40,025 nt of DNA from an uncultured Gemmatimonadota bacterium (GCA_964490075.1 CAZBBK010000055.1:1-40025), one strand, 5' to 3'; positions 5,902 through 37,702 are shown, counted from the first letter of the stretch. Notes: generated from the letters alone by a model not told the origin. Program-made: numbers and translations.

Positions 5902-5909
5902 AACGATGT

Positions 5910-6750: not shown

Positions 6751-6800
6751 GCGGGGTGGATCTTGCGCGATCGAACGAGCGACGAGCGGCACGCGCGGGA

Positions 6801-6846: not shown

Positions 6847-6855
6847 AACGGAGGG

Positions 6856-8202: not shown

Positions 8203-8207
8203 GGCTT

Positions 8208-13928: not shown

Positions 13929-14106
13929 GCGGCGAAAATTTATATCGGGCCGAACAAGGGATCTTCTCGGGCGATTAACGAAGTACGCCACAACGACTTG
14001 CGTCGCACCGGCGGGATTCCGGGCCGAGGCGACGAAGAGACGATTGTGGTGTATCTTCTCTGATGTCGAATCGGCGGGATCCTCGATCCTTTTTATCCGA
14101 TCGCAC

Positions 14107-14532
14107 ATGAAGGACCGCCGTCCGCGCCACCGCCGAACCAAGCCAAGCGAGAGAGACCTGCCCATGGTTGAGAAGATCAACGAGATCTCCGGCGAGAACC
14201 TGCGCAAGTGTATGCAGTGCGGAACCTGCAGTGCCATCTGCCCGATGGGCGAGGCGATGCCGATCACGCCGCGGCGCGGCATGATGCTGCTGCAGTACGG
14301 AGAGATCGAGGCGGTGCAGGAGGCCGCCATCGGCACCTTCTGCGCCTCCTGCCATACCTGCGAGGTGCGCTGCCCGCGCGGCATCAGCGTGGCGAAGGTC
14401 TACGAGGCGGTGCGGCTCCTGGCGCTGCGCGACAACATCAATCTGATCGAGCCCGAGGCGATCCCCAAGGAGACCCTGGCCGAGGCTCCGCAGATCGCTT
14501 TCGTGAGCGGCTTTCGCAAACTGACGGCGTGA
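14107..14532 (+). CDS. hdrC: HdrC-like 2x[4Fe-4S] protein (start may be 14164)
   Basis: ISGENLRKCMQCGTCSAICP and CASCHTCEVRCPRGI; adjacent to HdrB-like gene. Confidence 0.8.
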   Translation: MKDRRPRHRRTKPSERDLPMVEKINEISGENLRKCMQCGTCSAICPMGEAMPITPRRGMMLLQYGEIEAVQEAAIGTFCASCHTCEVRCPRGISVAKVYEAVRLLALRDNINLIEPEAIPKETLAEAPQIAFVSGFRKLTA

Positions 14533-14539
14533 GGAAACG

Positions 14540-15424
14540 ATGAAGCTCGCCTACTACCCCGGCTGCACGCTCAAGACCAAGGCGCAGAACCTCGACCGCT
14601 CGGCGATGGCGGCGCTCGAGGCGCTCGGCGTGGAGGCCCTCGAGCTACCGCGCTGGAACTGCTGCGGCGCTGTGTTCTCGCTCGCCGACGACGACCTGAT
14701 CCACCACCTGGCGCCGGTGCGCAACCTGATCCGCACCATGGAGTCGGGCTGCGACACGCTGGTGACGCTCTGCTCCCAGTGCTACAACACCCTGGCGCGC
14801 GCCAATCTCTTGATGCGCGAAGACGCCGAGAAGCGCGACACGATCAACCGCTTCATGACCGAGGAGCCGGACTACGCCGGCGAGATCGAGGTGCAGCACT
14901 ATCTCAGCTTCCTGCGCGATTCGGTCGGCTGGGAGAAGCTGCGCGCGGCGGTCGAGGTGCCGCTCGAGGGGCTGAAGGTGGCGCCCTTCTACGGCTGCAC
15001 GCTGCTCAGGCCGAACGAGGTGGCGATCGACGGCGGCCCCAGTCCGCGTCTCTTCGATGAGTTCCTGGCCGCACTCGGCGCCGAGCCGACGCGCTTCTCC
15101 GCCGCCACCGAGTGCTGCGGCTCCTACCAGTGCCTGATCCACGCCGACGCGGAGTCGGAGCGGGCCGCCGAGGTGCTGGCTTCGGCCGAACGCGCGGCGG
15201 CCGACGCGCTGGCGCTGAGCTGCCCGCTCTGCGAGTACAACCTCGGCACACGGCAAGGCGCCGTGCTCGAAGGGCGCGAGGGTCTCGCCCCGCTGCCCAC
15301 CTACTACTTCTCGCAGCTCCTGGCGCTGGCTCTCGGGCTCGACCCGGAGCTGTGCCGTTTCGATCTGAATCAGCCGCCGGCCTTGCAGCTCGTGCAAGAG
15401 CGGGACTTCGTCTCCTCGTCATGA
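14540..15424 (+). CDS. hdrB: HdrB-like CCG-domain protein
   Basis: YYPGC, WNCCG, LCSQCYN, FYGC, ECCG, SCPLCEYNL (two CCG domains). Confidence 0.88.
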   Translation: MKLAYYPGCTLKTKAQNLDRSAMAALEALGVEALELPRWNCCGAVFSLADDDLIHHLAPVRNLIRTMESGCDTLVTLCSQCYNTLARANLLMREDAEKRDTINRFMTEEPDYAGEIEVQHYLSFLRDSVGWEKLRAAVEVPLEGLKVAPFYGCTLLRPNEVAIDGGPSPRLFDEFLAALGAEPTRFSAATECCGSYQCLIHADAESERAAEVLASAERAAADALALSCPLCEYNLGTRQGAVLEGREGLAPLPTYYFSQLLALALGLDPELCRFDLNQPPALQLVQERDFVSSS

Positions 15425-15448
15425 GGGGACCGGCACGAAAGGGCAACG

Positions 15449-16207
15449 ATGGGAACGAGTGACAACGGAAAGAGCACGGCCGCGATCGAAATGATACCGG
15501 TGTTCGTGATGGGCAAGCGCTACGAGGTGCCCGCCGAGCTCACGATCATGAAGGCGATGGAGTTCGCCGGGTATCAGTACATTCGCGGCTGCGGCTGTCG
15601 CGGCGGAATCTGCGGGGCTTGCGCGACGGTCTATCGCAAGGCCGGGGACTATCGGATCTACACCGGGCTGGCCTGCCAGACGGTGATCGAGCCCGATATG
15701 TACCTGACCCAGATCCCCTTCTACCCGGCCAACCGGGCCGGCTACGACTACGCAGCCGTGGCGGCGGAGCCGGAGACGATCTTCCAGCTATACCCCGAGC
15801 TCTTCCGCTGCGTGGCCTGCAACGCCTGCACCAAGGTCTGCCCGATGGACGTCCAGGTGATGGACTACATCGCGGAGCTGAAACGCGGCGATATCGAGAA
15901 GGCGGCCGAGACCTCGTTCGACTGCATCCAGTGCGGACTCTGCGCCAGCCGCTGCATGGGCGAGCTGGCCCAGTATCACATCGCGCAGCTGGCGCGCCGT
16001 CTGGCCGGCGGCAAGCTGGCGCCGCGCGCCGAGCACCTGGCCAAGATGGTCGAGTCGATCGAATCCGGCGCCTTCGAGGGGATGCTCGAAGAGCTGAAGA
16101 CGATGGACGCGGAGAAGCTGCGTGCGCTCTATGTCGAGCGCGAGATGGAGCCGCACATGACGGGCGAGGACTGGCGACCCGCCGAGACCGTCGGATTGGC
16201 GACATAA
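15449..16207 (+). CDS. SdhB/FrdB/TfrB-like Fe-S protein ([2Fe-2S] plus 2x[4Fe-4S])
   Basis: GCGCRGGICGAC...LAC; CVACNACTKVCP; CIQCGLCASRC. Confidence 0.85.
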   Translation: MGTSDNGKSTAAIEMIPVFVMGKRYEVPAELTIMKAMEFAGYQYIRGCGCRGGICGACATVYRKAGDYRIYTGLACQTVIEPDMYLTQIPFYPANRAGYDYAAVAAEPETIFQLYPELFRCVACNACTKVCPMDVQVMDYIAELKRGDIEKAAETSFDCIQCGLCASRCMGELAQYHIAQLARRLAGGKLAPRAEHLAKMVESIESGAFEGMLEELKTMDAEKLRALYVEREMEPHMTGEDWRPAETVGLAT

Positions 16208-16273
16208 TAGACGCGCAGCGCGGATGAGCACTCCCAGGCTCCCGAACGCCCGCAGAAGGAAACGAGAGAAACG

Positions 16274-17944
16274 ATGCCTTATCCCGAATCACTCCAGGAG
16301 CTGATCAAGGCGGTGGAGAAGACCCGGCCGGAGCGGGTGGAGCGCAAACGCAAGGGGGAGGAGGTCCCCTTCCTCGATCTCGATCAGCGCAAAGAGGTGC
16401 TGCACTTTCACCCGGACCACCGGGCCGAGGGACGGCGCGAGCTGGCGGTGGGGCCGAGCAAGGGTTATGGGATCCCGCATGAGATCGCCGACCTGCTCGA
16501 AGCGCGGCCGCGGGTGCAGCCCGACAAGGTCGATCTCTCGCATCCCGACTACGAGACCGATCTCCTGGTGATCGGCGGCGGCGGCGCGGGATCGTCGGCG
16601 GCGATCATCGCCCAGCAGCAGGGCGTGAAGACGATCGTGGCGACCAAGCTGCGCCACGGCGACGCCAACACCATGATGGCGGAGGGCGGCATCCAGGCCG
16701 CCACCAAGGGCGAGAAGGACTCTCCCTACTTCCACTACCTCGACGTGCTAGGCGGCGGCCACTTCACCAACGTGCCGGAGCTGGCCGAGGCGCTGGCGGT
16801 CAACGCGCCCGACGCGATCCGTTGGTTGGAGCACCTGGGGGTCGGCTTCTCCAAGGACGCCGAGGGCCGCCTGATGACCATCCACGGCGGTGGAACCTCG
16901 CGCAAGCGTATGCACTACGCCGCCGACATCACCGGCGCCGAGATCATGCGCACGCTGCGCGACGAGGTGCGCAACCGCGCGGGCGACATCGAGGTGCTGG
17001 AGTTCAGCCCGGCAGTGGAGCTGATCCTGAACGAGCACGGCCACTGCGCCGGCGCGGTGCTCTACAACATGGAGACCCAGGAGTATTTCGCGGTCAAGGC
17101 CAAGGCGGTGCTGATGGCGACCGGCGGCTGCGGCCGGCTGCACATCCAGAACTTCATGACCACCAACCACTACGGCGCCACGGCCGACGGCATCGTGCTG
17201 GGCTACCGGGCCGGCGTGCCGGTGGCCTTCCTGCACACCGTGCAGTACCACCCGACCGGAATCGTCTTCCCGGAGCAGGCCGAAGGGATCCTGATCACCG
17301 AGAAGTTCCGCGGCGCCGGCGCCAACCTGGTCAACGTCGAGGGCCAGCAGTTCGTCAACGAGCGCGAGCCGCGCGACGTCGAGGCGGCGTCGATCATCAA
17401 GGAGTGCGTCTCGAAGGAGCTGGGGGTGCCGACCCCCACCGGCAAGCTCGGCATCTGGCTCGACTCGCCGATGATCGAGATGCTCGAGGGCGAGGGAACG
17501 GTGCGCCGCGAGTTCCCGGGCAAGTACATCCTCTACAAGCGCTTCGGCATCGACATCTCGAAGCAGCCGATGCTGATCTATCCGACCCTGCACTATCAGA
17601 ACGGCGGGCTCGAGTTCCAGGCCGACGGCGGCACCTGCCTGCCCGGCCTCTTCGTGGCCGGCGAGGTCGGGGGCGGAATCCACGGCGCCAACCGCCTGAT
17701 GGGCAACTCGCTGCTCGACATCGTGGTGTTCGGGCGGATCGCGGGCGCTTCGTCCGCCGACTACATCAGCTCGCAGGCGAAGGATGGGGCGTTGACCCTG
17801 GATCATGCGCGCGACTACCAGCAGGAGCTGGAGAAGAGCGACGTGGGCGGCGACCGGGTGGCCCCGGCGCTGATCCCCGACTACACCGACCCGGAACTCA
17901 AGGCGCGCCAGCTCACCACCAGCTACGTTGGCAACGTGCGCTGA
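16274..17944 (+). CDS. Fumarate reductase/succinate dehydrogenase flavoprotein (TfrA-like, probably non-covalent FAD)
   Basis: GGGGAG, NTMMAEGGI, TG..IM, QYHPTG, LITEKFRG, EPRDV, LHYQNGG, HGANRLMGNSL. Confidence 0.88.
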   Translation: MPYPESLQELIKAVEKTRPERVERKRKGEEVPFLDLDQRKEVLHFHPDHRAEGRRELAVGPSKGYGIPHEIADLLEARPRVQPDKVDLSHPDYETDLLVIGGGGAGSSAAIIAQQQGVKTIVATKLRHGDANTMMAEGGIQAATKGEKDSPYFHYLDVLGGGHFTNVPELAEALAVNAPDAIRWLEHLGVGFSKDAEGRLMTIHGGGTSRKRMHYAADITGAEIMRTLRDEVRNRAGDIEVLEFSPAVELILNEHGHCAGAVLYNMETQEYFAVKAKAVLMATGGCGRLHIQNFMTTNHYGATADGIVLGYRAGVPVAFLHTVQYHPTGIVFPEQAEGILITEKFRGAGANLVNVEGQQFVNEREPRDVEAASIIKECVSKELGVPTPTGKLGIWLDSPMIEMLEGEGTVRREFPGKYILYKRFGIDISKQPMLIYPTLHYQNGGLEFQADGGTCLPGLFVAGEVGGGIHGANRLMGNSLLDIVVFGRIAGASSADYISSQAKDGALTLDHARDYQQELEKSDVGGDRVAPALIPDYTDPELKARQLTTSYVGNVR

Positions 17945-25198: not shown

Positions 25199-26494
25199 AT
25201 GCGCATCACGACTGTCCAACCCGTCTATCGACCCGCGATCGGCGGCTGCGAGATCTACAGCCACGCACTGGTCAGCCGCCTGCGCGAACGCCACACGGTG
25301 CGGGTGATCACCGTTCTCAATCGCCAGGAAGACAAGCTCGCCCACCCCGATCTGTGGCGCAATTGTCTGCTGCACGCCACGCGCGGCGGCCAGCGTGACG
25401 AGGTCGACGGAGTGCCGGTGCACCTGGTGTCGCTGTCGGCGCTGGAGCGGCGGCTCTGCTACCCGATGCTGCGCGGCTACCGACACTTCGAAACCGCGGC
25501 GATGGCGCTGATCGAGCGTCTCTTCGCCGCCAAGATCGCGCCGCTGATCGAAGACTCCGACATCGTCCACGTGATGCACGGAGGCGTGTCGTTCCTGGGG
25601 CGGGCGGCGCAGCGCGCGGCGGCCGCTCGTGGCATCCCCTTCTACTTCACTCCGGTCCTGCACGAGTATCACGGCTGGGACCATCTGCTCCGCGATGGAG
25701 CAGGAGCGAAGGGGGGCCGGCAACACTTCGGCGAGCAGATCCCCTACGTGCGCAAGATGCCCGCGACCTACCACGATCGCTACTGGGCGGAGCTGGCCAG
25801 GAGCGCCGACGGTGTCATCGCTCTGACCGATCACGAGAAAGGGATCCTGGTCCGCGAAGGGGTGGCCGAAGAGCGAATCCACGTCACCGGGATCGGACCG
25901 GTGGTCGCTGCGGGTGGACCCTCGCGCGACGAGCTGCGGCGCCGCCACGGCATCGGCGACGCGCCGCTGGTGCTCTTTCTGGGTCGCAAGCACGAGCTGA
26001 AGGGGGTGGTGGAGATCCTGCAGGCCGCCGAGAAGGTCTGGGAGCGCTTCCCTGAGGCGCGCTTCGCCTTCGTCGGTCCGGTCGAAGGCAGCACCGAGGC
26101 GGCGCTGTCGCGCTACGCCGACCACCCCGGCGTGATCGATCTGCCGGAGGTGTCGGACGCCGAGAAGAGCGGCTGGTACCGAGCCTGCGATCTCTTCGTG
26201 AGCCCCTCGGTGCACGAGAGCCTGGGTGGCGTCTTCCTGGAGGCGTGGACCTTCGGCCGGCCGATCGTCGGCGGCGACATTCCGCCGGTGCGCGAGATCT
26301 CGATGAGCGGGCGGACCGGCATCCTGGTGTCGCGACGCGATCCGGGGCAGATCGCGGAGGCGGTCCTGCGTCTCGTGTCTGACCCCGACGAGGCGGCCAG
26401 ACTGGGGGCGCTGGGCGCGGAACGGGTGCGCACGCGCTATAGCTGGGAGCACATCGTGGAGCGAACCGAGTCGGCGTTCGGCGCCACGTCCTAG
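25199..26494 (+). CDS. Glycosyltransferase family 4
   Basis: YRPAIGGCE, LFLGRKHELKG, PSVHESLGGVFLEAW, YSWEH. Confidence 0.9.
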   Translation: MRITTVQPVYRPAIGGCEIYSHALVSRLRERHTVRVITVLNRQEDKLAHPDLWRNCLLHATRGGQRDEVDGVPVHLVSLSALERRLCYPMLRGYRHFETAAMALIERLFAAKIAPLIEDSDIVHVMHGGVSFLGRAAQRAAAARGIPFYFTPVLHEYHGWDHLLRDGAGAKGGRQHFGEQIPYVRKMPATYHDRYWAELARSADGVIALTDHEKGILVREGVAEERIHVTGIGPVVAAGGPSRDELRRRHGIGDAPLVLFLGRKHELKGVVEILQAAEKVWERFPEARFAFVGPVEGSTEAALSRYADHPGVIDLPEVSDAEKSGWYRACDLFVSPSVHESLGGVFLEAWTFGRPIVGGDIPPVREISMSGRTGILVSRRDPGQIAEAVLRLVSDPDEAARLGALGAERVRTRYSWEHIVERTESAFGATS

Positions 26495-28218
26495 ATTCGA
26501 TCGCGGGCGAAATCGGCCAGCCCGGAGCTCGAGATCACCCGGACTTCTCCGCCTTCAGCCGGCACCACCAGCACGCCCTCGCAGTCCGGCAGCGATTCGA
26601 GAAGCGCCAGCCCCCGTTCCGCTCCGAGCACGAAGCAGGCGGTGGCGGCGGCGTCGGCCAGGAGCGCCTCGTGCGCCACCACCGTCACGCCGAGGAGCCC
26701 TCGGCAGGGGCGGCCGTCGCGTGGATCGAGAATGTGGCCCCAGCTCTCACCCTCCGCCTGACGATTGCGCTCGTACTGGCCGGAAGTGGCGACCGCCCCC
26801 TCGCGCAGCACCAGTTCGCCGAGGGTCGTGCCGGGCCGGAGCGGATCGACGATGGCGACCAGCGGCTCGGGCCCCGCGCCGAAGAGGAGAAGCCCTCCGC
26901 CCAGGTCGAGCAGAGCGCCGGTCGCGCCGGCCTCGCGCATGGCCCGGGCCGCCAGATCGAGCGCGTACCCTTTGGCGATGCCGCCGAGATCGAGGCGCAC
27001 GCCGGCGGCGTGGAATCGCAGGGTGCGACGCAGGGGATCGAGCTCCACCCGCTGATGCCCGATCTTCTTCAGGGTCTCGCCCAGCGCCGAATCGGAAGGC
27101 ACCGCCACCGCTCCCTCAGCGCGAAAGCCCCACAACTCCACCAGAGGCAAGACCGTCGGATCGAAAGCCCCCTCGCTGCGCCGCGCCATCTCCAGGGCGG
27201 CGTTGATCACGGTGTAGGCATCGGTCGACAAGGGGACCGGGCGCTGGTGGGCCTGCGCGTTGATGCGCATGAGCTCGCTGTCGGGGCGCCAGGTGCTGAG
27301 CGTCGAGTCGACGTGCACGAAGGCGGCGAAGGCGGCGTGCACCGCGGCCTCGGCCGCGCTCTCGGTAGCCGCCCAGGCATGGACTCGGGCCAGGGTGCCC
27401 ATGATCAGGCGGGCTTCCTCGTGACTGGCCGCGCGCGACTCGTCTACCTGCTCAGCGGCAATCGCTCGGCAGTCGAGCGACACGCCGGCCAGCAGCAGCG
27501 CCAAGATTCCCACCACGCATGAGACCGAGCGTCTGCGCCTGCCCCTGTTGCGCAACCCGGCCAGCGCCAGACCGCTGAGCGTCAGCACCAGCAGCGCGAA
27601 GGCGCCCGCACTCACGATTGCGCGGCCCGTGTTGCCCAGCCAGTAGCCGGTGTGTAGCTCGTGGACCACTCGATGGAGATCTCGATCCGGGCGCCGGGAC
27701 GGCCAGGGCAGGTCGCTCCAGGTGTCGCCACCATCGCCGCTGCGCAGCACTCCGCCGGCGCTCAAGAGCGCGATCCGTCCCGCGGCGCCGACACTCAGAT
27801 CGAGCGGTTCCAGCCACGCCTCTGCCGGCGGCGGAGGCAAGACCACGGATTCCCAGATCCGTCCGGAGTCGTGCGACACGACCAGGCCGTCGGCGCCCAG
27901 CACGTAGACGGTGTTGGCATCGTCCGGCGCGAAGGCGATCCGCAACACTTCTCCGGGTGGACGCAGCATCGGCGTCTCGCGCCAGCTTCGACCGCGGTCG
28001 GTCGAGATTTCGATCCCGTAGCGGGTGCCGCGCAGCCAACGGTCGGCGTCGTTCGGATCGGCCGCGAACGCGCCCGGCGGATCGGCGGGCGGCCCCAGAA
28101 GATGCGGAAACTGCAACAGCAGTCCGGTGCCGGTGGCCCCCAGCACCAGGACCGCCGCCGCCACGCCGAGTGCGCGATGCAGACCCCCGATCGACGATTC
28201 CATGCGACTAATTTGCAA
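26491..28218 (-). CDS. apbE: PepSY-TM / BNR-repeat / ApbE (FAD:protein FMN transferase) fusion
   Basis: LHRALG...TGLLL, Asp-box repeats STDRGRSW/SHDSGRIW/SGDGGDTW, HELHTG..LSGL, then ApbE motifs MGT, FDPTV, DLGGIAKGY, ATSGQYER, HILDPRDG. Confidence 0.85.
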   Translation of the reverse strand: MQISRMESSIGGLHRALGVAAAVLVLGATGTGLLLQFPHLLGPPADPPGAFAADPNDADRWLRGTRYGIEISTDRGRSWRETPMLRPPGEVLRIAFAPDDANTVYVLGADGLVVSHDSGRIWESVVLPPPPAEAWLEPLDLSVGAAGRIALLSAGGVLRSGDGGDTWSDLPWPSRRPDRDLHRVVHELHTGYWLGNTGRAIVSAGAFALLVLTLSGLALAGLRNRGRRRRSVSCVVGILALLLAGVSLDCRAIAAEQVDESRAASHEEARLIMGTLARVHAWAATESAAEAAVHAAFAAFVHVDSTLSTWRPDSELMRINAQAHQRPVPLSTDAYTVINAALEMARRSEGAFDPTVLPLVELWGFRAEGAVAVPSDSALGETLKKIGHQRVELDPLRRTLRFHAAGVRLDLGGIAKGYALDLAARAMREAGATGALLDLGGGLLLFGAGPEPLVAIVDPLRPGTTLGELVLREGAVATSGQYERNRQAEGESWGHILDPRDGRPCRGLLGVTVVAHEALLADAAATACFVLGAERGLALLESLPDCEGVLVVPAEGGEVRVISSSGLADFARDRI

Positions 28219-28789
28219 TGCCGAACCTCGCCCGCGCCAGGTGCAGGACTCGCTTGACGCCGGCCGCCAGCGCCCGGCTCGACATGGTCGCGCCGCTCAG
28301 CACGACCAGATCGCGGTTGAGACGAATGGGATCGTCCACTTCCTTGCCCCGAAACTGCTTCACAAAACGCTTGCGCCGCACTCCGTCGCCGCGCGACTCG
28401 CGATAGACCATCACCTGCACGCTCTCGACCCGCCCGCGCGCGGAGACCTTCACCATGAAAGTGATCGGCTTGAAACGACCGATTTCCTCGGTCACCATGG
28501 CCACGCCGAGATCGCGCCCGCCGCGCCGACCCCGATGAAACTCGAAGGCGGGCTCGGGCAGCCGCCAGCCCAGCTCCGTCTCGAGCGCGCCGCGCCCGGC
28601 GGCGCTCGGGCTCCAGCGCTCCGTCCAAAGTGTGTCGGCACCCGGGAAGGCACGCTCCAGGGCCTGTTCGAGGCTCAGGTAGACCTTGACGTGCTCCGGC
28701 CCGTCCGGACTTTGGGTCAGGCGATCGGCCCGCGCCGAGCAGGGAACGACCAGCAGCAGCGCCAAGAGCGCGCAGCGGAGTCCGCTCAC
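28208..28789 (-). CDS. Periplasmic FMN-binding (flavinylation target) protein
   Basis: Signal peptide; PITFMV, VMVYRESRG, flavinylation motif VLSGATMSS; GTG start. Confidence 0.85.
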   Translation of the reverse strand: MSGLRCALLALLLVVPCSARADRLTQSPDGPEHVKVYLSLEQALERAFPGADTLWTERWSPSAAGRGALETELGWRLPEPAFEFHRGRRGGRDLGVAMVTEEIGRFKPITFMVKVSARGRVESVQVMVYRESRGDGVRRKRFVKQFRGKEVDDPIRLNRDLVVLSGATMSSRALAAGVKRVLHLARARFGIAN

Positions 28790-28790
28790 C

Positions 28791-29924
28791 TTAGAAATAC
28801 GTCGCGAACGAGAAGAAGAAGCGAGCATGCGCATCGCCGGCATCACCGTTGGCCGGAGTGGCGCGACCCAGATTGTAGTCGGCCTTGAACGCGGTCTCCT
28901 CGGTGGGCCGGAAGTTGATGCCGAAGGTCAGCCCTTCCTGACTGTCGCCGTCGGTGTCGGAGTCGAAATCGACCCAGTCTCCGCGGGCCACCAGGGTCAT
29001 TACCGAGCCGGGCATGAGCGCGTCGTGCAGAACGTGGTAGTTGGCCTGTGCGTAGGCACCGCGCTGGCTTTCGGCCGCGCCCGGATGGGCGTCGGCATCG
29101 ACGTCGGCCTGCACCGATGCAACCTCGCCCTGCAGCTCGAAGGGTCCCAGGGCGGTCTTGGCGTCGAAGGCGGCGATCGTCACCCGATGCTCGTCGTCAG
29201 CGTCGTAGTTCCCGCTGTGGACGGAAGCGCCAAGGGTGGTGCCGACGGCGGGGCTGAGCCCGAGGTGACCGACCAGCGCCTTGTTGCGGTTGTTGTCGGA
29301 TTTCTGGCTACCGCGCCCGCCGCGCACGCGCAACGCGCCGTCCTCGTTGATCAGTCCATCTTCGAAGCCGTTCACCAGGTAGGCCTCGTAGGAGACGATC
29401 CAGTCTTCGCCGAGGGCCGACTCGCCGAACAGACCCATGCCGGACTCCGAGAGGGTCGAGGGGATCAACTGGCGGGAGACCACGGGGCGCGCGGTCAGGT
29501 CGTTCAGCGGACTGTCGTGCAGCAGGTTGAACGATCCGAGTGGGCTCAGGATCACGCCTCCGCGGAAGCTGAGGGCGTCGGTGACTTCGAAGTCCATCAC
29601 CGCGTACTCCAGCTTCAGCTCGCCGTCGCCGCCGACGTTGCCGCCGTGCTCGTACTCGATCTCGGTCGACACGGTAACCCGCTCGGAGACATGGGCGGTG
29701 AGGAAGGGGATGAAACGGTGCTGGTCGAAGGTGTTGTCGCCCCCCTCGTTCCACTCGAATTCCATGTCCATATAGCCGCCCACCGACACCCCGCCGCTGT
29801 CGTCGCGCAAGTAGGGCTTGTCGTAGATACCGCCCGGCAATCCGGGGCGGGTGAGCGGAGAGGCCTGCGCCGCGGAGCTGGCCGCGATTCCGAGGGTGAG
29901 GAGGGTGATGGGCAGCTTGATCAT
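28791..29924 (-). CDS. Outer-membrane porin (OprO/OprP-like beta-barrel)
   Basis: Signal peptide; GGYMD, EIEYEHG, amphipathic strands, C-terminal FSFATYF; AGGAG RBS. Confidence 0.82.
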   Translation of the reverse strand: MIKLPITLLTLGIAASSAAQASPLTRPGLPGGIYDKPYLRDDSGGVSVGGYMDMEFEWNEGGDNTFDQHRFIPFLTAHVSERVTVSTEIEYEHGGNVGGDGELKLEYAVMDFEVTDALSFRGGVILSPLGSFNLLHDSPLNDLTARPVVSRQLIPSTLSESGMGLFGESALGEDWIVSYEAYLVNGFEDGLINEDGALRVRGGRGSQKSDNNRNKALVGHLGLSPAVGTTLGASVHSGNYDADDEHRVTIAAFDAKTALGPFELQGEVASVQADVDADAHPGAAESQRGAYAQANYHVLHDALMPGSVMTLVARGDWVDFDSDTDGDSQEGLTFGINFRPTEETAFKADYNLGRATPANGDAGDAHARFFFSFATYF

Positions 29925-30027
29925 GAGGTTCTCCTGAGCGTCTCGCTCCTGCGAAGGGCAACGCTTCTCGTGTTGCGCGCTCGAATCGAGCTCGGGGCCC
30001 GGATCCTCCGGGCCGTGTCAGGTGAGA

Positions 30028-30061
30028 GAGATATCTCAGTCTGTTAGAGGTGTCAACCTAA
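30028..30061 (-). promoter_or_regulatory. Sigma70-type promoter for the porin operon overlapped by palindromes
   Basis: Minus strand TTGACA-17 bp-TATCTC; palindromes GAGATATCTC (30028-30037) and TTAG-N10-CTAA (30044-30061). Confidence 0.45.
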
Positions 30062-30195
30062 ATCTGACCCGTCACCCAGGACTCCGCGGGCGGCAACCCA
30101 TCCATGGGCGCAGCGGCTTGCGCGGAAAGGGAATCGGTCCTTCGCTGGGAAATCGCGCGGCGCCGCCGCTCCACGACCCGCACAGGAATCCTCAA

Positions 30196-31272
30196 GTGCC
30201 TCGAAAATCGTTCGACCGGGCCGCGCTCGGCCTCCTCGTCCTGCTGGCGGCGAGCGATGCCCACGCCATTCCGCGCTACTCCATCCGCTACCGCCAGGAC
30301 TGCAACCTCTGCCACAAGAACCCCTCGGGCGGCGGCCAGCGCAGCGCCTACGCCGCGCAGTACCTGGTTCCGGCCGAGCTGGTGATGAGCCCGCGCGGCG
30401 CCAAGGAGCTGGAGAAGATCGACCCCCAGATCGGCGCCAACCTCAGCGTCGGCGCCGACCTACGCACCCAGCACATGACCGACCTGGCGGGAGAAGGGCT
30501 CCAGGACTTCTTCCTGATGCAGGCCGATCTCTACTTCACCTTCTCGGTGGACGGCCGCAACCTGCTCTACCTCGAGCGCGGGCTGCGCGAGGGCTACGAT
30601 CTCTACGGCCTCTCCTACACGCTGCCCATGGACGGCTACGTCAAGGTCGGCCGCTTCGCCCCGACCTACGGCTGGCGCTTCGCCGATCACAACCGCTTCG
30701 TGCGCAGCGAGCTGGGATTCTCCCCGCCGGCCCATACCGACGTCGGCGTCGAGTTGGGAATCGCGCCCGGCGAGACCACGCTGAGCCTGGCGCTGATGAA
30801 CGGGGCGCCCGGGTCGACGCTCGACGGGGACGGCGATCCGGCATTTGTAGGGCGCGCGGCGCGGCGGATGGAGCTCGGGACGATCGGCCTCAGCGCCGGC
30901 GCCTCGGTCATGCACACAGATGCCGGCGGCGCTCGGCGCACCGTGGCCGGTCCCTTCGGTGCCGTCCACTGGGGACGGTTGACCTGGATGGGGGAGCTCG
31001 ATGCGGCGCGCAGCGAGGTCGGCGGCGGCACTCTCACCGGAGTCGTCGCTACCCAGGAGCTGGCGCTCGCGTTGCGTCCCGGTCTCGACCTGGTCGGCGT
31101 CTACGATTTCCACGATGCCGACATCGATCTGAAGAGCGGCAAGGACACCGGATTCAGCGTCGGCCTCGAGGCCTTCCCGCAACCCTTCGTCAAGTTCTTG
31201 GCCCTGGTTCGGGGCTGGCAGGGGCCCAGCGACAATACCCAGGCGATTCTGCAGGCCCATTTCCTCTATTGA
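30196..31272 (+). CDS. Monoheme cytochrome c / outer-membrane beta-barrel fusion
   Basis: Signal peptide ending AHA-IP; CNLCH at the mature N-terminus; KVGRF, VGVELG and amphipathic strands; C-terminal QAHFLY. Confidence 0.78.
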   Translation: MPRKSFDRAALGLLVLLAASDAHAIPRYSIRYRQDCNLCHKNPSGGGQRSAYAAQYLVPAELVMSPRGAKELEKIDPQIGANLSVGADLRTQHMTDLAGEGLQDFFLMQADLYFTFSVDGRNLLYLERGLREGYDLYGLSYTLPMDGYVKVGRFAPTYGWRFADHNRFVRSELGFSPPAHTDVGVELGIAPGETTLSLALMNGAPGSTLDGDGDPAFVGRAARRMELGTIGLSAGASVMHTDAGGARRTVAGPFGAVHWGRLTWMGELDAARSEVGGGTLTGVVATQELALALRPGLDLVGVYDFHDADIDLKSGKDTGFSVGLEAFPQPFVKFLALVRGWQGPSDNTQAILQAHFLY

Positions 31273-31886
31273 TGATCCCATTGCCCGAAAGACTCAAGAT
31301 GAAAATGCGTTTGCTCCTGTCTCTGCTGGTTTCATTATCGACGCTCGCCGAGGCGTCGGCCCTGGAGCTGGTGGTGCGGCCCGGCGCCGAAGACAACCTG
31401 GTGGTGTTTCGGTCGGAAGCCCCGATGGAGTCGTTCGAGGGCAAGACCCGCGAGGTACGGGGTGAGATGTCGGTCGATCTGGGCGCTCTCGAAGGTCCCT
31501 TCCGCGCCCGTTTCGAGGTCGACCTGGCCAGCTTGGAGACCGGCAGCGGCATGCGCGACAAGCACATGCGCGAGAATCACTTGGAGACCGACGAGTTCCC
31601 CAGCGCGGTGTTCCGGGCGCGGGAGATCAGGGAAACGTCGAAGCCTGCACTGGAGGTCGGAGATACCGTCACATTCTTGGCCAAGGGCGAGTTCGATCTG
31701 CACGGCGTGACGCGCAAGATCGAGGTTCCGATCGAGGCAACGCGCGAGGACGAGGGCCAAGTTCGCATCAAGGCACAGTTCGGCGTGAGGCTGTCCGACC
31801 ATCGAATCGAGCGTCCCAAATTCCTCTTCATGAAGCTCGGTGAAGAGCAACAGGTGACCATCGACGTGCGGGCGGGTGTGAAGTGA
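31272..31886 (+). CDS. YceI family protein
   Basis: ESFEG, VDLASLETGSGMRDKHM, LETDEFP, LHGVTR, LSDHRIERP; signal peptide; start may be 31299/31305. Confidence 0.88.
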   Translation: MIPLPERLKMKMRLLLSLLVSLSTLAEASALELVVRPGAEDNLVVFRSEAPMESFEGKTREVRGEMSVDLGALEGPFRARFEVDLASLETGSGMRDKHMRENHLETDEFPSAVFRAREIRETSKPALEVGDTVTFLAKGEFDLHGVTRKIEVPIEATREDEGQVRIKAQFGVRLSDHRIERPKFLFMKLGEEQQVTIDVRAGVK

Positions 31887-31903
31887 AAGGGACGGAAGCG
31901 ACA

Positions 31904-32275
31904 ATGAAATCCCGAGTGGCGGCGGCAGCGCTGGCGCTGGCGATCAGCGCCTGCAGCGATCTTGGCAGCAACCCGGAGGATCCACCCGGTCCCGAGCCGG
32001 ATTCGACCTGGGACGATGGCATCGAGACTCTGCTCACCGGTCGCTGCGGCGCCTGCCACTCCGTGCCTCCGGCCAACGGGGCGCCGGGCGGCTTTCGACT
32101 CGACCGCTACGATCGCGCCGACGCCGGAGGCGGAATCGACGGCGCCTTCGAGAAGCGCAGCCGGATCCGTACCCGCGCGGTGGACGCCGGCTCGATGCCC
32201 CCGGGCGCTCCCCTGCCGGCCGCCGAGCGCGACGAGCTGGAAGCCTGGCTCGATGCCGGGGCGCCGCGCTCGTAG
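31904..32275 (+). CDS. Lipoprotein monoheme cytochrome c
   Basis: Lipobox ISAC; CGACH; distal Met motif SMPP; WLDAGAP. Confidence 0.82.
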   Translation: MKSRVAAAALALAISACSDLGSNPEDPPGPEPDSTWDDGIETLLTGRCGACHSVPPANGAPGGFRLDRYDRADAGGGIDGAFEKRSRIRTRAVDAGSMPPGAPLPAAERDELEAWLDAGAPRS

Positions 32276-32411: not shown

Positions 32412-34235
32412 ATGAAGGGGTCCCCCCGCCGCCACGCCCACCGCGCACGACCGGTCGCCGCCCTGCTCGCCGCCTGCGGCCTTCTGATCTGCCTCGCCGG
32501 ATGCGCCTCGACGCCCCGCTACGGCGCCGCTCCAGGCGGCCGGCGTGCCCACGAGCGGCAGGTCGATCGGGACGATTCGGGGACGACCCACGAAGCGCGG
32601 CCTGGCGCGCCGGACACCTCTGTCGAGAGCAGCGCACCGCCCCCCGGCGAGGACGGCGCCTGGAGTGCTCCCCCGACTGCGGCCACGGAGAAGGGCATTC
32701 CGTCCCCTCAAAGCCTGCAGACCGAGGCGATCGAGGCCTGCGAATCGGCCGAGATCTTCCTGGACGAGGGCGAGCTCGACGATGCCATCGCGGCGCTCGA
32801 CCGCGCCTACCAGCTGGTGCTGACCATGCCGGAGAACGGCGATCCGGCCGCCGCCCAGACGCGCGCCGACATCCGCAGAATCGTCGCCGAGAAGCTGATC
32901 GATATCTACGCCTCGCAGCGCACCGCGGCCGGCGCGCCGCGCACCTCGTGGGACCTGGAGATCCAGCTCGTTGCCAACGATCATGTGCAACGCGAGATCA
33001 AGTCGTTCCAGACCTCCGAGCGCAACTTCTTCCTCGATTCCTACCGGCGCTCCGGACGCTTCCGCCCGATGATCCTCGCCAAGCTCCAGGAGGCCGGACT
33101 GCCGAGCCAGCTCAGCTGGCTGCCGCTGATCGAGAGCGGCTACAAGGTCCACGCCTATTCGCGGGCCAAGGCGCTGGGCCTGTGGCAGTTCATCCTCTCC
33201 ACGGGGCGCCGCTACGGCCTCACACGCGACGCCTGGACCGATCAGCGCATGGATCCCGAGCGCTCGACCGACGCGGCGATCGCCTATCTCGGCGAGCTGC
33301 ACGACCTGTTCGGGGACTGGCCGCAAGCGCTGGCCGGCTACAACTGCGGCGAGAATCGGGTGCTGCGTCTCGATCGCCAACGCAGCGATCAGGATCTCGA
33401 CTTCTGGGACCTCTACGCGCAGCTTCCACGCGAGACCCGGCGTTACGTCCCGCGCTTCTTCGCCACGCTGCTGATCCTCGAAGACCCCGAGGCGTACGGG
33501 ATCCAGCTACCCGCGCCCGACGATCCGCTGCCCGATCCCGCCCTGATCACCACGCACAAGCAGTACCAGCTCGAGGCGATCGAAAAGCGTGTCGACCTGC
33601 CCTCGGGGCTGCTCGGCACCTACAATCCGGTGCTGCGCCACGGAATCACTCCAAAGGACGAGTTCTTGTTGCGGGTTCCGCCAGAGCAGCATGCCGGCGT
33701 GCGCGACTGCCTGCGCGAGATGCCGGAGTACACTCCCCCCGAGCCGGAGTTCGTGGTTCACCGAGTGCGGCGCGGTCAAACCCTGTCCACCATCGCCGCC
33801 AAGTACGGTGTCTCCATCTCGACCATCGCGCGCGCCAACGACATCCGCAATGTCAACCGCATCTACCCGGGCCGACGCATCAAGATTCCGCTGCGCGCCT
33901 CGGCTGCATCAGCCCGTCGCAGAAGCTCGGGCGAGCCGGTGTTTCACGTCGTCCGCAGGGGCGATACCCTTTGGGACATCGCCAAGATGTACCGCACCAG
34001 CGTCAACACGATCAAGCGCGAGAACGCCTTGCGCAGCTCGCGCATCAATCCCGGCCAGAAGCTCCGGGTCTCACCCGGAAGCAGGCAGGGTTCACGAGTC
34101 CACGTGGTGCGCCGCGGAGACACCCTGAGCGCCATCGCGGAATCGTACGGCGTCGGCCTGCGGGCGCTGCTACGCATCAACGGCTTGAGCAGCCGCAGCA
34201 CGATCTACCCGAATCAGCGGATCGTCGTCCCCTAG
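32412..34235 (+). CDS. mltD: Membrane-bound lytic murein transglycosylase D-like (SLT plus 3 LysM)
   Basis: Lipobox LAGC; IESGY, GLWQF, AGYNCGE, ETRRYV; three LysM repeats (HxVRRG(Q/D)TL..IA). Confidence 0.88.
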   Translation: MKGSPRRHAHRARPVAALLAACGLLICLAGCASTPRYGAAPGGRRAHERQVDRDDSGTTHEARPGAPDTSVESSAPPPGEDGAWSAPPTAATEKGIPSPQSLQTEAIEACESAEIFLDEGELDDAIAALDRAYQLVLTMPENGDPAAAQTRADIRRIVAEKLIDIYASQRTAAGAPRTSWDLEIQLVANDHVQREIKSFQTSERNFFLDSYRRSGRFRPMILAKLQEAGLPSQLSWLPLIESGYKVHAYSRAKALGLWQFILSTGRRYGLTRDAWTDQRMDPERSTDAAIAYLGELHDLFGDWPQALAGYNCGENRVLRLDRQRSDQDLDFWDLYAQLPRETRRYVPRFFATLLILEDPEAYGIQLPAPDDPLPDPALITTHKQYQLEAIEKRVDLPSGLLGTYNPVLRHGITPKDEFLLRVPPEQHAGVRDCLREMPEYTPPEPEFVVHRVRRGQTLSTIAAKYGVSISTIARANDIRNVNRIYPGRRIKIPLRASAASARRRSSGEPVFHVVRRGDTLWDIAKMYRTSVNTIKRENALRSSRINPGQKLRVSPGSRQGSRVHVVRRGDTLSAIAESYGVGLRALLRINGLSSRSTIYPNQRIVVP

Positions 34236-36389
34236 AAGCGTCACCCGCACATTCTTGAACGCCGGAGTGCGCGACAGCGGATCGACTGTTGTTGGATACA
34301 GAGTATTCGCCTCGGGGTAGTACATCATGGCGCAGCCGCGGCTCACGTCGAAGGCGCGCACGGCGATCTCCGGCAGCTCTCCGTGCTCGCTGCGCACCCT
34401 CACTCGTTGATCGGTGCTCAGGCCCAGTTGGTCGATGTCGGCGGGGTTCATGAGAATCACATCGCGGCGTTTCTGCCCCCGGTAGAGGTCGCCCTCCTCG
34501 TAGACCACGGTGTTGAACTGGCCTTCGGAGCGCACGCTCATCAACAAGAGCTCGCCCGGCGCCGGTGGCTCGGAATACGGAATCGCGACGGCCTGGAAGG
34601 CCGCGCGGCCATCGCTGGTGCCGAAGCGAGCATCGCGCGGCGCACGTCCCGGAATGTGGAACTCCTGGCCTCGCGCCAGAGGCGCGAAATCCGGAATCGC
34701 TTTGGCGATCAGCTCGCGAATGGTGTCGTGCTCTCCCAGCGACCCCCAGTCGACCGGCCCCTGGGATCCGAACAACCGCTTCGCCAGGTCGACCACGATC
34801 GAGGTCTCGGTCCGGGTGTTCGGATGGCGCGCGGGGCCGCCGGCGCTGCGCCGCACGTACGAGAACATCGACTCCTGGGTCGTGCATTGCGGCTCCTCGT
34901 CGCGGGCGCGCACCGGCAGAATCAGTGTCTCCTTGCCGCGACCGTGAACGTGGCCGGTGTTCAACGAAGTGTTGAAGCAGACCACCTGATCGATGCGCGC
35001 GAGCGCGCCGGCGGCGAAGCGGCTGGCCGGGTTGGATCCATAGAGATTGCCGCCCAGGCACCAGGCCACACGCATCTCGCCGGCCGCGGCCCGCTCCATG
35101 CAGGCCATGGTGTCGAGCCCGGGCTCGGACGGCAGCGCGGCGCTCAGTTCCGCCTCCAGACGCTCGATCAGCGCCGCCTTCAGCCTGGGCACCACGCCCA
35201 TGGTTCCCATCCCCTGCACGTTGGAATGACCGCGAAGAGGCAACAGTCCGCATCCCGGGCGCCCCACCATGCCCCTCATCAGCGCCAGGTTGGCGATGCA
35301 GCGCACGTTCTCGACACCGTGCCGGTGATGTGTGATGCCCATCGCCCAGGCGAAGATGGTGGCCTTCGACTCGGCGTAGATCGCGGCGGCGGCGCGGATC
35401 TCGGCCACGCTCAGCGCGCATGCGGCGACGATCTCGTCCCAGGTGGCGCGCTCCACCACGTTGCGCCACAAGGGCCAACCCTTGGTGTGCTCCGCCACGA
35501 AGCCCCGGTCCTCGGCGCCGGTCTCGAGCAGGTACTTGGCGATGCCGATCATGAGCGCGATGTCGCCGCCGATGCGCGGCTGCAGCGTGCGAGTCGCGAT
35601 CTGGGAGCCGAACAGCAGACTGCGCCAGTCCGAGGGCACACGGAAGCGGCATAACCCCGGCTCGCGCGCCGGATTGACCACCACCACCGTGCCCCCACGC
35701 CGCCGCAGCTGCAACAGCTCCTTCATGAAGCGCGGATGGTTGGAGGCCGGATTGGCGCCCATCAGGAAGAGCGTGTCGCAGCGCCGCAGGTCATCGAGAC
35801 GCACGCTCGCGGTGCCGGAACCGATCGCCTCGCCCAGACCCACCCCCGAGGCCTGGTGACAGTAATAGGAGCAGTTGTGGACGTTGTTGGTGCCGTAGAC
35901 GCGGGCGAAGAGCTGCAGCAGGAAGCCGGCCTCGTTCGAGGAGCGGCCGCTGACGTAGAAGAAGGAATGGCGCGGATCGGTGGCGGCCAGCTTGGCGCCG
36001 GCGCGTTCCAGCGCCTCTCCCCAGCCGATCTCGGAATAGTGCGTCTCTCCCTCGCTCAGCAAGAGCGGCGTGGTCAGACGTCCGGCCTGCTCCAGCTCGC
36101 GCGGCGTCATCCGGGCCAGCTCGGCGACGCCGAATCGCTCGAAGAAGCCGGGCGGAATCGCGCTCTGCATGTCGGCCGCCATCGCCTGCACCGACTTCTT
36201 GCACACTTCGAAACGCCCGCCGACCTCGTTGCGCATGCCGCCACGCGCCCCGCCCATGCCGAACGCGCAGGTCTTGCACGCGTTCGGGGCCCGCAGTGCG
36301 CGCCACATTTTCCGGGGGCCGCCGCGACGCATGGCCTGGGCGAATGTGTAGCGAACGGCGGGCCAACCGCCTCCGGACTGAGCGCTCAC
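34170..36389 (-). CDS. FdhF/YdeP family molybdopterin oxidoreductase
   Basis: GGGW, ACKTCA, CKKS, YVSGRSSNEA, GTNNVHNCSYYCH, NPASNHPR, WAMGITHH, LRGHSNVQG, SVRSEGQFNT; GTGA overlap with upstream gene. Confidence 0.9.
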   Translation of the reverse strand: MSAQSGGGWPAVRYTFAQAMRRGGPRKMWRALRAPNACKTCAFGMGGARGGMRNEVGGRFEVCKKSVQAMAADMQSAIPPGFFERFGVAELARMTPRELEQAGRLTTPLLLSEGETHYSEIGWGEALERAGAKLAATDPRHSFFYVSGRSSNEAGFLLQLFARVYGTNNVHNCSYYCHQASGVGLGEAIGSGTASVRLDDLRRCDTLFLMGANPASNHPRFMKELLQLRRRGGTVVVVNPAREPGLCRFRVPSDWRSLLFGSQIATRTLQPRIGGDIALMIGIAKYLLETGAEDRGFVAEHTKGWPLWRNVVERATWDEIVAACALSVAEIRAAAAIYAESKATIFAWAMGITHHRHGVENVRCIANLALMRGMVGRPGCGLLPLRGHSNVQGMGTMGVVPRLKAALIERLEAELSAALPSEPGLDTMACMERAAAGEMRVAWCLGGNLYGSNPASRFAAGALARIDQVVCFNTSLNTGHVHGRGKETLILPVRARDEEPQCTTQESMFSYVRRSAGGPARHPNTRTETSIVVDLAKRLFGSQGPVDWGSLGEHDTIRELIAKAIPDFAPLARGQEFHIPGRAPRDARFGTSDGRAAFQAVAIPYSEPPAPGELLLMSVRSEGQFNTVVYEEGDLYRGQKRRDVILMNPADIDQLGLSTDQRVRVRSEHGELPEIAVRAFDVSRGCAMMYYPEANTLYPTTVDPLSRTPAFKNVRVTLLGDDDPLIRVDRAAAAQAVDA

Positions 36390-36964
36390 GCAGGCGCCCC
36401 TTCGGCGGCTGCCTCCGGCGCGGTGCGCCCCGCCGGCCGCGCATCCGGCAACATCTTGGTCAGGATGGATCCGGCGAGCAGGAGCGCGGCCAGGTCGTAG
36501 AACGCCGCCAAGGTGTGGAACTTCCAGCTTTGATACCACCAGATCGGTTCGCCCAGATTGGCGAACACCGCGCAGACCAGAGCGGTCAGGAGCAGCACTC
36601 CGGCGCGCTTCTCCCGCGCCAGGGGCCGCAGCAAGGCCCCGAGCAAGACGCACGACACGAGCATGTGCAGGAATCCCCCGGCGAACACCCCGCCGGCCAT
36701 GACCGGAGCGCCGGCGCGCCGGTAGTGCACGAAGGCGATCGGTCCGGCCTCGTGCAGGGTGCGAAACTGATGCTCGTCGCTGCCGTAGCCGGGCAGCACG
36801 TAGGCACCATCGGCGCTCAGATGCTGCTGCAGCGCCGAACCGAACGCGGCCTGGTCGTCCGCCAGCTGGGTCATCCCGATCCAATCGGCCGCGAGTCCCC
36901 AGAAGACAAATCCCCAGAGGAACATGGCGAGGGCGGCAACGAGGTGGGCGAGTATCGCTTTCAT
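36386..36964 (-). CDS. Hypothetical integral membrane protein (~4 TM)
   Basis: Hydrophobic segments FLWGFVFWG etc.; translationally coupled to the ydeP-like gene. Confidence 0.7.
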   Translation of the reverse strand: MKAILAHLVAALAMFLWGFVFWGLAADWIGMTQLADDQAAFGSALQQHLSADGAYVLPGYGSDEHQFRTLHEAGPIAFVHYRRAGAPVMAGGVFAGGFLHMLVSCVLLGALLRPLAREKRAGVLLLTALVCAVFANLGEPIWWYQSWKFHTLAAFYDLAALLLAGSILTKMLPDARPAGRTAPEAAAEGAPA

Positions 36965-37000
36965 GTCGAGCTCTTTCGGTGGTTCGCGACCACGGATGGA

Positions 37001-37702
37001 TCAAACACCCAATTTGCTCTTCAGGCGGTCGCTGGACAGATGCTTGACCAGGTCGAGCGGCTCGCAGAAATTGGCGCCGTAGTCGACGCGGATCGGTCCG
37101 ATCGCCACAGCGGCCTCGAGCGCCGCTCGATGCAAAGTCGAATTGCGCTTGCCGATCCCCAGCAGCGCCAGGCTCATGGCGTCGCGGACCCAGTTCTCCT
37201 CGCCCGCGATCGTCCCTCGAATGCGCGCCACGTGGTCGAGAAAGAAGGCATCATCCCGGGCCTTGCGCCCCCGGGCCTTCGACATCTCGTAGAGCAGCAG
37301 ATAGCCGCAGCGGCGCCGCATCGGATCGGCGGCGGCGATCCAGTCGACCGCCAGGTCGGGGGCGAAGTCGGCCTTGGCCAGGGTGGCGTCGCAAGAGGCG
37401 AAGACATGCGCGAGCATCCCGGCGCCGCGCTCCTCCACCTGCGACTCCGCCTGGGCGCGCGTCATCTTCGCCGGCTCGTCGATCAAGAGGCCGACGATCT
37501 TGGCGTCGTAGCTATCGCTGCGCCAGAGCTCGAGCGCCAGGTCGTGGTCACGGCCCACGCCTTTGGCCAGCTTGCGCAGCTGCGTCAATCCGATCCCGAA
37601 GCTGCTCAGAGGACTGTCCTCGCCGGCCAGTCTCTTCCAGTGGGCGATGCCGCGTTCGTTTCGGTGCTCGCCGAGCAGGGTCATCACGTCGCATCGGTTC
37701 AT
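37001..37702 (-). CDS. DNA alkylation repair protein (AlkD-like HEAT repeat)
   Basis: FGIGLTQLRKLAKGVGRDHDLALELW, YDAKIVGLLIDEP, ALLGIGKRN. Confidence 0.82.
   Translation of the reverse strand: MNRCDVMTLLGEHRNERGIAHWKRLAGEDSPLSSFGIGLTQLRKLAKGVGRDHDLALELWRSDSYDAKIVGLLIDEPAKMTRAQAESQVEERGAGMLAHVFASCDATLAKADFAPDLAVDWIAAADPMRRRCGYLLLYEMSKARGRKARDDAFFLDHVARIRGTIAGEENWVRDAMSLALLGIGKRNSTLHRAALEAAVAIGPIRVDYGANFCEPLDLVKHLSSDRLKSKLGV

Follow-up and report, generated by a model that had tools for sequence, protein, structure and literature searches.

A short Cyc2-like haem-porin with a YceI partner, beside a PepSY-like flavinylation arm, in an uncultured Gemmatimonadota bacterium

We analysed a stretch of 40,025 nucleotides (nt) from an uncultured Gemmatimonadota bacterium (GCA_964490075.1, CAZBBK010000055.1:1-40025; hereafter the window, with positions counted from its first letter), and focused on six genes within 26491-32275 that form a pair of compact, divergently oriented arms. 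In our best reading, each arm is a module of its own and a variation on a kind already known, and the rightward arm is the interesting part. It encodes an outer-membrane barrel fused to a short CxxCH-bearing segment, which we name a short Cyc2-like haem-porin, followed by a secreted YceI-family protein and a lipoprotein cytochrome c, in a gene order that is seen again in many other genomes, far beyond chance. The leftward arm encodes a porin, an FMN (flavin mononucleotide)-binding protein and a PepSY_TM/ApbE fusion. On balance, we favour the reading that these are two independent envelope redox modules, one a Cyc2-like haem-porin/YceI/cytochrome set and the other a PepSY-like flavinylation set, that became neighbours by chance.

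The window is GC-rich (63-72% per kilobase, kb), and neighbouring genes inside each arm abut or share a few bases. All six genes had been proposed by a sequence-only reading of this DNA, and open reading frames (ORFs), Pfam matches and homologues recover each of them where it had been placed. Lengths below are in amino acids (aa) or base pairs (bp):

26491-28218, minus strand: PepSY_TM/ApbE fusion, 575 aa (Pfam and PDB matches)
28208-28846, minus strand: secreted FMN_bind protein, RnfG-like (Pfam FMN_bind, 1.8e-7)
28791-29924, minus strand: outer-membrane beta-barrel porin, 377 aa (signal peptide, C-terminal ...FATYF, family matches)
29925-30195, no strand: divergent spacer, 271 bp (sequence)
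30196-31272, plus strand: short Cyc2-like cytochrome-porin, the haem-porin, 358 aa (AlphaFold2 model, Foldseek, family alignment)
31269-31886, plus strand: YceI-family secreted protein (Pfam YceI, 2e-20)
31883-32275, plus strand: lipoprotein monohaem cytochrome c, PSCyt1-like, 123-130 aa (family hidden Markov model, HMM, 5.9e-7)

The haem-porin, its family and its predicted fold

The sequence-only reading had described the first rightward gene as a cytochrome-porin fusion, a description that holds, and had left its Cyc2 architecture unnamed. The longest ORF of this gene begins at 30022. We set the start at GTG 30196 because the signal peptide is where both the aligned homologues and a 358-aa database protein of 99% identity begin, and this start in turn gives the spacer its 271 bp, close to the ~270 bp proposed earlier. 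The protein opens with a hydrophobic N-terminus ending in AHA, which is a signal peptide, and carries a single CNLCH at aa 36-40 (nt 30301-30315), its only C..CH. It matched nothing in Pfam or NCBIfam, and a scan of 40 members of its family gave sub-threshold matches only, to Cytochrome_CBB3 in 12, to OMP_b-brl in 4 and to Porin_O_P in 3. Against PDB sequences the family profile returned one weak match (6qvm, E 0.027), with no solved structure resembling the haem segment by sequence, and tblastn against plasmids gave no match. One relative, P0018, falls into unnamed clusters, the nearest Pfam-labelled cluster bearing Porin_O_P on 20% of its members.

The family is nevertheless a large one by profile search. 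A profile built from 40 members matched 3017 clusters (50% identity, E ≤1e-3), 1547 of them at 1e-10 and 452 at 1e-30, and nearly all members of the family belong to uncultured lineages. A cultured carrier is Persicimonas caeni, in which a member of the wider family (P0341, 402 aa) is annotated "hypothetical protein". The full-length proteins among the best 150 profile matches, and those of a second search started from a distant member, display the N-terminal signature A-x-P-R-[FY]-[AS]-x-R-x-G-x-x-CxxCH-x-N-P-x-G-G-G-x-R, in which CxxCH and P-x-G-G-G persist in nearly all full-length proteins down to ~25% identity.

The AlphaFold2 model of the haem-porin (mean predicted local distance difference test score, pLDDT, 87.7; predicted template-modelling score, pTM, 0.84) shows short helices at residues 26-72, followed by sixteen strands at residues 83-357. 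We relied on this model for the strand number, as a cruder count of amphipathic strands gave 10-17 depending on the threshold. The leading Foldseek matches are without exception porins of 16 strands. By E-value chitoporin (5mdq) comes first, at 3.8e-11, and the highest template-modelling (TM) scores belong to OprP (2o4v, E 9.1e-11, TMq 0.64) and OprO (4rjw, E 2e-9, TMq 0.63). At the putative haem site, C36, C39 and H40 are kept in all 39 sequences compared, and its flanks, P26, R27, P43, G45-G47 and R49, in 38-39 of 39. Beyond this site, the highest conservation is seen at M108, on strand 2, and across G152-P177, a stretch that includes D164 and H165; both M108 and H165 are present in 40 of 40 sequences. 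In the model, G152-P177 sits between strands 5 and 6, the position at which classical porins fold a constriction loop into the lumen. From this geometry we infer that the conserved 5-6 loop and the N-terminal segment may together form a haem pocket inside the barrel or at its periplasmic mouth, in which case M108 or H165 would serve as the sixth haem ligand.

Conserved partners of the haem-porin

The second gene of the arm encodes a protein that scores 74.1 bits against Pfam YceI (PF04264; cutoff 23.7), and its start is likely ATG 31299. The YceI profile of the module matches Escherichia coli YceI (1y0g) in the PDB at 6.5e-18 and the X158 domains 2x32/2x34 at 1.2e-12. The third gene, which likely starts at ATG 31904, encodes a lipoprotein with the lipobox ISAC, a single CGACH (nt 32045-32059) and a conserved MPP downstream. 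Its own score against Pfam PSCyt1 (PF07635) stays below the cutoff (16 bits against 22, E 0.019); it does match an HMM of 49 homologous C-terminal domains, and PSCyt1 is called above the cutoff in the homologues of loci L042 (54.5 bits), L069 (26.4) and L002 (23.3).

We examined the surroundings of the best 80 of 94 confirmed haem-porin relatives, taking one genome per species; all are metagenome-assembled genomes (MAGs), and their haem-porins are 31-57% identical to that of the window. They carry at least 13 taxon labels: Eisenbacteria 26, Krumholzibacteria-type 13, Gemmatimonadota-type 5, Latescibacteria-type 2, ten others and 24 unnamed. Among the 79 loci with at least 500 bp of downstream sequence, YceI adjoins the haem-porin in 74, lying directly downstream on the same strand in 72 and ~2.6 kb upstream in 2; tblastn found no YceI in the remaining five (L014, L040, L065, L079 and L080). 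All-against-all clustering of the 4577 ORFs within 7 kb revealed one further widespread family, present in 58 loci, of lipoproteins with a C-terminal monohaem domain. An HMM search places this lipoprotein cytochrome no more than 2.5 kb from the haem-porin and in the same orientation in 56 of 80 loci, upstream in 27 and downstream in 29. The conserved unit is thus the rightward arm, consisting of the haem-porin, a near-constant YceI and a frequent lipoprotein cytochrome. The other recurring neighbours, as far as annotated, are all unrelated housekeeping genes (peptidases, kinases, GNAT, MeaB and others).

Several loci hold other haem proteins beside the pair. In L052 (11995-14742) and L054 (11876-14689), the pair is followed by a secreted protein of 915-937 aa with two CxxCH motifs, and the small lipoprotein cytochrome is absent. 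P460-type cytochrome genes, some of them two-domain, lie directly beside the pair in 8 of 80 loci (L001, L029, L031, L042, L061, L065, L069 and L072), and the window has none; cytochrome P460-type proteins are known for acting on nitrogen oxides rather than on iron. Three of these genes are located as follows:

L001:3-335: P460-type gene
L029:3694-4632: P460-type gene
L065:8593-9603: P460-type gene

The patristic distances of haem-porin and YceI are strongly correlated (Mantel r 0.83 over 57 pairs, with 0 of 999 permutations as high), which fits co-inheritance of the two genes and could also arise from shared ancestry alone. In one database protein (P0047, 489 aa) a single ORF runs from a haem-porin into YceI. 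As this is a single case, with the N-terminus missing and the signal region of YceI retained as a linker, it may be a lost stop codon or an error rather than a real fusion. That shared ancestry could explain the correlation is what speaks for the plainest alternative, namely an ordinary porin with an incidental CxxCH whose YceI neighbour is merely inherited gene order. We hold this to be very improbable: an incidental motif would not be expected to keep its cysteines, its histidine and their flanks in virtually every sequence aligned, nor to persist with P-x-G-G-G to the low identities noted above, and the YceI adjacency spans many phylum-level labels while the other neighbours vary.

Likeness to Cyc2 and a proposed route for electrons

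The closest described architecture is that of Cyc2. As set out in the parts of PMC8406198 we draw on, Cyc2 combines a signal peptide and a single CXXCH with a barrel of 16 strands that is structurally homologous to OprO/OprP. The motif AXPXFAR[Q/K][T/Y] precedes its haem site and PXL comes after it, and 365 aa serves as a working length cut-off in FeGenie. Characterised Cyc2 proteins are 439-556 aa long, and none has an experimental structure according to the portion of PMC13741234 consulted. With Acidithiobacillus ferrooxidans Cyc2, Leptospirillum Cyt572 and Mariprofundus Cyc2PV-1, the haem-porin has in common a signal peptide, a single N-terminal CXXCH (His at ~40-47) and a barrel of 16 strands, like that of OprO/OprP, to which a short cytochrome segment is joined. 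The residues before its haem site are also similar, following A-x-P-x-[FY]-[AS]-x-R-[YT].

The differences are equally clear. At 358 aa the haem-porin is shorter than the characterised proteins and falls under the 365-aa cut-off, as do 12 of its 57 closest homologues, 3 of which are probable fragments. The strict pre-haem motif is absent, the sequence reading A-I-P-R-Y-S-I-R-Y instead, and the pattern P.FAR[QK][TY] occurs in 0 of 384 proteins of a pool that includes ~120 porin homologues. The PXL found four residues after CXXCH in Cyc2 is replaced, with CNLCH-K-N-P-S-G-G-G-Q-R in the window and x-N-P-T-G-G-G-x-R in the family. The near-obligate YceI neighbour is a further trait of the haem-porin, of which we found no mention for Cyc2 in the literature searched. 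We chose the name short Cyc2-like haem-porin because three Cyc2 features are present and two motifs and the length are not. By analogy of architecture, the protein very probably works like Cyc2, although the sequence definition published for Cyc2 leaves it out. Other outer-membrane barrels are likewise used with haem for electron exchange with extracellular iron: MtrCAB, MtoAB and PioAB, as described in the sections of PMC8406198 cited here. These differ in combining 26-strand barrels with separate decahaem cytochromes, whereas here one haem would be fused to a 16-strand barrel.

Indirect evidence on the link to Cyc2 comes from published genomes. In the sections available to us, PMC9769843 lists Cyc2-like genes, mostly of Cluster III, in MAGs of Eisenbacteria, Gemmatimonadota, Krumholzibacteriota and others. 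One Eisenbacteria MAG in its table shares a bin name with our locus L018, which has a family member, and the Cyc2-like gene meant there may or may not be this member.

We propose the following route for the rightward arm. One c-type haem would be attached at C36/C39, with H40 as a ligand, on an N-terminal segment of ~55 residues in front of the OprO/P-like barrel. Most likely, the haem-porin exchanges electrons with an extracellular partner. The analogy with Cyc2 suggests dissolved Fe(II) that enters the pore, and the flow would then run inward. The haem-porin would then hand its electrons to a periplasmic cytochrome, for which the lipid-anchored monohaem cytochrome c, probably with His/Met ligation, is the candidate. 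YceI would be a docking or cofactor-carrying partner, possibly presenting an isoprenoid quinone.

For the part of YceI there is a precedent. Among the polyisoprenoids that X158 YceI-like domains bind is ubiquinone-8, and Cbp2D joins such domains to c-type cytochrome domains in one protein (parts of PMC8981238). By analogy, Cbp2D is a precedent for a YceI fold in an extracytoplasmic electron chain. The YceI of the module resembles these proteins (1y0g; Cbp2D/E 2x32 and 2x34) in being secreted, in its Pfam family and in its association with a c-type cytochrome outside the cytoplasm, as in Cbp2D. It differs in that it is encoded by a separate gene next to a haem-porin, and is neither a domain of a carbohydrate-binding protein nor a neighbour of cytochrome b561. 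In the literature searched, with subscription journals and supplements outside its scope, no description of YceI paired with Cyc2 or a haem-porin was found. In a tentative and rather unlikely variant, the haem-porin and YceI are a so far unrecognised type of outer-membrane conduit, where a YceI-held isoprenoid quinone would relay electrons from the barrel haem with or without the lipoprotein cytochrome.

The iron substrate itself invites doubt of another kind. The haem-porin/YceI module may be real without being an Fe(II) oxidase, serving electron export to acceptors outside the cell, envelope redox sensing or protection (as proposed for YceI with cytochrome b561), or the handling of a lipophilic quinone or isoprenoid across the outer membrane. 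The carriers are mostly described as heterotrophs in the sections of PMC9769843 consulted, the strict Cyc2 motifs are missing, polyisoprenoid binding is the known activity of YceI proteins in the cited portion of PMC8981238 and in the molecule names of the PDB matches, and no respiratory oxidase is linked to the module among the annotated neighbours. The P460-type genes in a tenth of the loci point the same way. But all characterised proteins that share this fused architecture oxidise iron, as far as the consulted parts of PMC8406198 and PMC7029218 go, and a small soluble donor fits well with a haem held in a narrow barrel of 16 strands. We regard a non-iron role as possible yet doubtful, and take the Cyc2-like module, working on Fe(II) by analogy, as the reading to be carried further.

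The flavinylation arm and its relation to the haem-porin

In the leftward arm, the gene farthest from the spacer is the one that the sequence-only reading had called a PepSY-TM/BNR/ApbE fusion. Two of these three parts stand above their cutoffs: PepSY_TM (4.5e-8; 33.7 bits against 28.8), matched in part only, at profile positions 3-220 of 295, and ApbE (4.4e-75, 253 bits), which spans aa 273-548. Against solved FAD (flavin adenine dinucleotide):protein FMN transferases the protein matches at ~6e-40 (PDB 4xdt, 5.9e-40). The BNR part is less secure, as BNR-type families score sub-threshold only and Sortilin-Vps10 (6e-5) is under its cutoff; the protein does carry three BNR-like Asp-box strings of the form S.D.G..W, at aa 72, 115 and 160. 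The predicted order of the protein, judged from its sequence, is a transmembrane (TM) helix with His14, a periplasmic Asp-box region, a second TM helix, an Arg-rich loop, a third TM helix and ApbE. H182, H186 and H189 precede the second TM helix, and together with His14 they flank both PepSY_TM helices. phmmer found no match between this protein and the FoxB structure 7ABW at E up to 1.

The FMN-binding protein with an SGAT motif, as proposed earlier, is borne out: Pfam FMN_bind scores 32.1 bits against a cutoff of 22, and SGAT lies at aa 184-187 (nt 28286-28297), the sole [ST]GA[ST] among nine window proteins scanned. The RnfG likeness is weaker (NCBIfam rnfG 6.5e-7, under its cutoff; PDB RnfG 0.0047). 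An in-frame GTG at 28789 immediately follows the porin stop codon and is likely the true start of this gene. By its motif and its position, the protein is likely the flavinylation substrate.

The gene next to the spacer encodes a porin whose own Pfam score is sub-threshold, without a match to Porin_O_P (PF07396), and for which no solved relative was found by sequence in the PDB. Its family is large and unusually well conserved: the search returned 747 homologues, and identity to the 120 best is 58-100%. Many of these homologues carry a precomputed PF07396 label, and among 36 relatives that we scanned the matches were weak, to SlpA_C in 10 and Porin_O_P in 8 (E ≤0.01, best 5.7e-6).

The domain content of the leftward arm marks it as a variant within the PepSY-like/ApbE flavinylation systems already described. 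In the sections of PMC8238504 that we cite, PepSY-like systems comprise 3220 clusters with a proposed role in reducing and assimilating iron, [S/T]GA[S/T] is a demonstrated ApbE target, and FoxB has two haem sites with two conserved histidines each. The arm agrees with the definition given there, since a PF03929 protein is clustered with ApbE and an [S/T]GA[S/T] substrate is adjacent, and the membrane histidines may add to its likeness to these systems (Meheust et al. 2021; FoxB, 7ABW). It departs from them in having PepSY_TM and ApbE on a single polypeptide, Asp-box repeats in the periplasmic part, an FMN_bind protein as substrate in place of the usual DUF2271, and a leading porin gene. In the mechanism that we propose, the membrane PepSY_TM unit brings its own ApbE, for which the threonine of SGAT in the FMN_bind protein encoded next to it would be the site of FMN attachment, and the dedicated porin would admit substrate.

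The sequence-only reading had taken both arms for extracytoplasmic electron transfer, which agrees with our findings, and had further suggested that all six genes may form a single co-regulated envelope conduit for metal reduction, metal oxidation or iron uptake, which our findings do not support. There are several points in favour of such a conduit. The arms stand head to head across the spacer, and both contain extracytoplasmic redox proteins. In their C-terminal halves, the barrels of the two arms show a distant resemblance (hhalign 82% probability, E 1.1e-5 over 150 columns; BLASTP E 0.006). One locus, L057, has an FMN_bind protein (Pfam 1.9e-8) with an SGAT motif 1.4 kb upstream of the module and, ~4 kb upstream on the other strand, a relative of the leftward porin at 29% identity.

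Gene neighbourhoods argue strongly against it. We ran tblastn of the window proteins against the 80 loci, which have at least 3.5 kb upstream in 60 and at least 3.5 kb downstream in 64. The ApbE fusion was found in 0 of 80 loci; FMN_bind and a relative of the porin each turned up once, both in L057. There the order across 4715-8590 is porin relative (minus strand), a glucose/sorbosone dehydrogenase-like protein with FlgD_ig (plus) and FMN_bind (plus), which differs from the window, and no ApbE is present. A search of the 4577 locus ORFs with the FMN_bind-site pattern gave 9 matches; of the two scanned with Pfam, the one in L057 is a confirmed FMN_bind protein and the one in L001 has no Pfam family. 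L001 is the closest locus (57% identity); its upstream sequence, 444 bp long, contains the end of a P460-type gene and no divergent porin. By the conservation criterion that the sequence-only reading had set for its refutation, the head-to-head pairing is not a conserved system.

The spacer offers no sign of joint control. Within its 271 bp we found no sigma-70-like promoter, terminator, Rfam match or Fur box, and thus no shared regulatory element. It holds short GC-rich hairpins, and its RNA fold is more stable than that of shuffled sequences (z = -2.9, with 0 of 200 shuffles equal), a property of unclear meaning. The spacer also contains the palindrome GAGATATCTC at 30028-30037, which is not above chance. 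Taken with the neighbourhood counts, a six-gene conduit appears improbable to us.

Our preferred reading, two independent modules of which the rightward one is Cyc2-like, has its own difficulties, and the following observations weigh against it. Since the haem-porin lacks the strict Cyc2 sequence features, it is the architecture that has to carry the Fe(II) oxidase role, and its named relatives are all annotated "hypothetical protein". The periplasmic acceptor is not constant, because 19 of 22 loci examined, among the 24 without the PSCyt1-like cytochrome, have no CxxCH ORF beside the pair. No conserved inner-membrane partner appeared among the annotated neighbours of the 80 loci. As regards independence, the FMN_bind gene near the module in L057 leaves room for an occasional functional link with flavoproteins. 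The pairing of the arms may also hold within a narrow lineage, as the closest relatives of the haem-porin, P0002/P0003 (62-68% identity), lie outside the loci compared. In addition, the neighbourhood scan was centred on the haem-porin, with conservation around the leftward arm outside its scope.

Neighbouring genes and significance

Other genes of the window touch on redox chemistry as well. Four genes at 14044-17944 encode Fer4-type, CCG, Fer2/Fer4 and FAD_binding_2 proteins and resemble a succinate dehydrogenase/fumarate reductase set with a CCG subunit. A molybdopterin oxidoreductase of the FdhF/YdeP family (34170-37004, minus strand; TIGR01701, 1.3e-201) is found ~2 kb downstream of the rightward arm, and its relatives occur within 9 kb of the haem-porin in L014 and L040, the two Krumholzibacteria loci without YceI. 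Directly after the lipoprotein cytochrome, at a distance of 136 bp, the window carries an MltD-like lytic transglycosylase with SLT and three LysM domains (32412-34235, plus strand), which was not found in the other loci.

Cyc2 is the main genome marker from which iron oxidation is inferred, and the haem-porins described here are a large family of shorter Cyc2-like proteins that published filters on motif and length cover only in part. Their YceI neighbour provides a two-gene signature that is more specific than the poorly conserved porin. By analogy with other YceI proteins, this link hints that electron transfer at the outer membrane may involve a lipid or quinone as cofactor. The six-gene conduit once proposed for this DNA should be divided into two known kinds of module. 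If the quinone-relay conduit were true, abundant uncultured phyla such as Eisenbacteria, Krumholzibacteriota and Gemmatimonadota would be able to oxidise iron or exchange electrons with the exterior, and the current Cyc2 criteria would in part overlook this.

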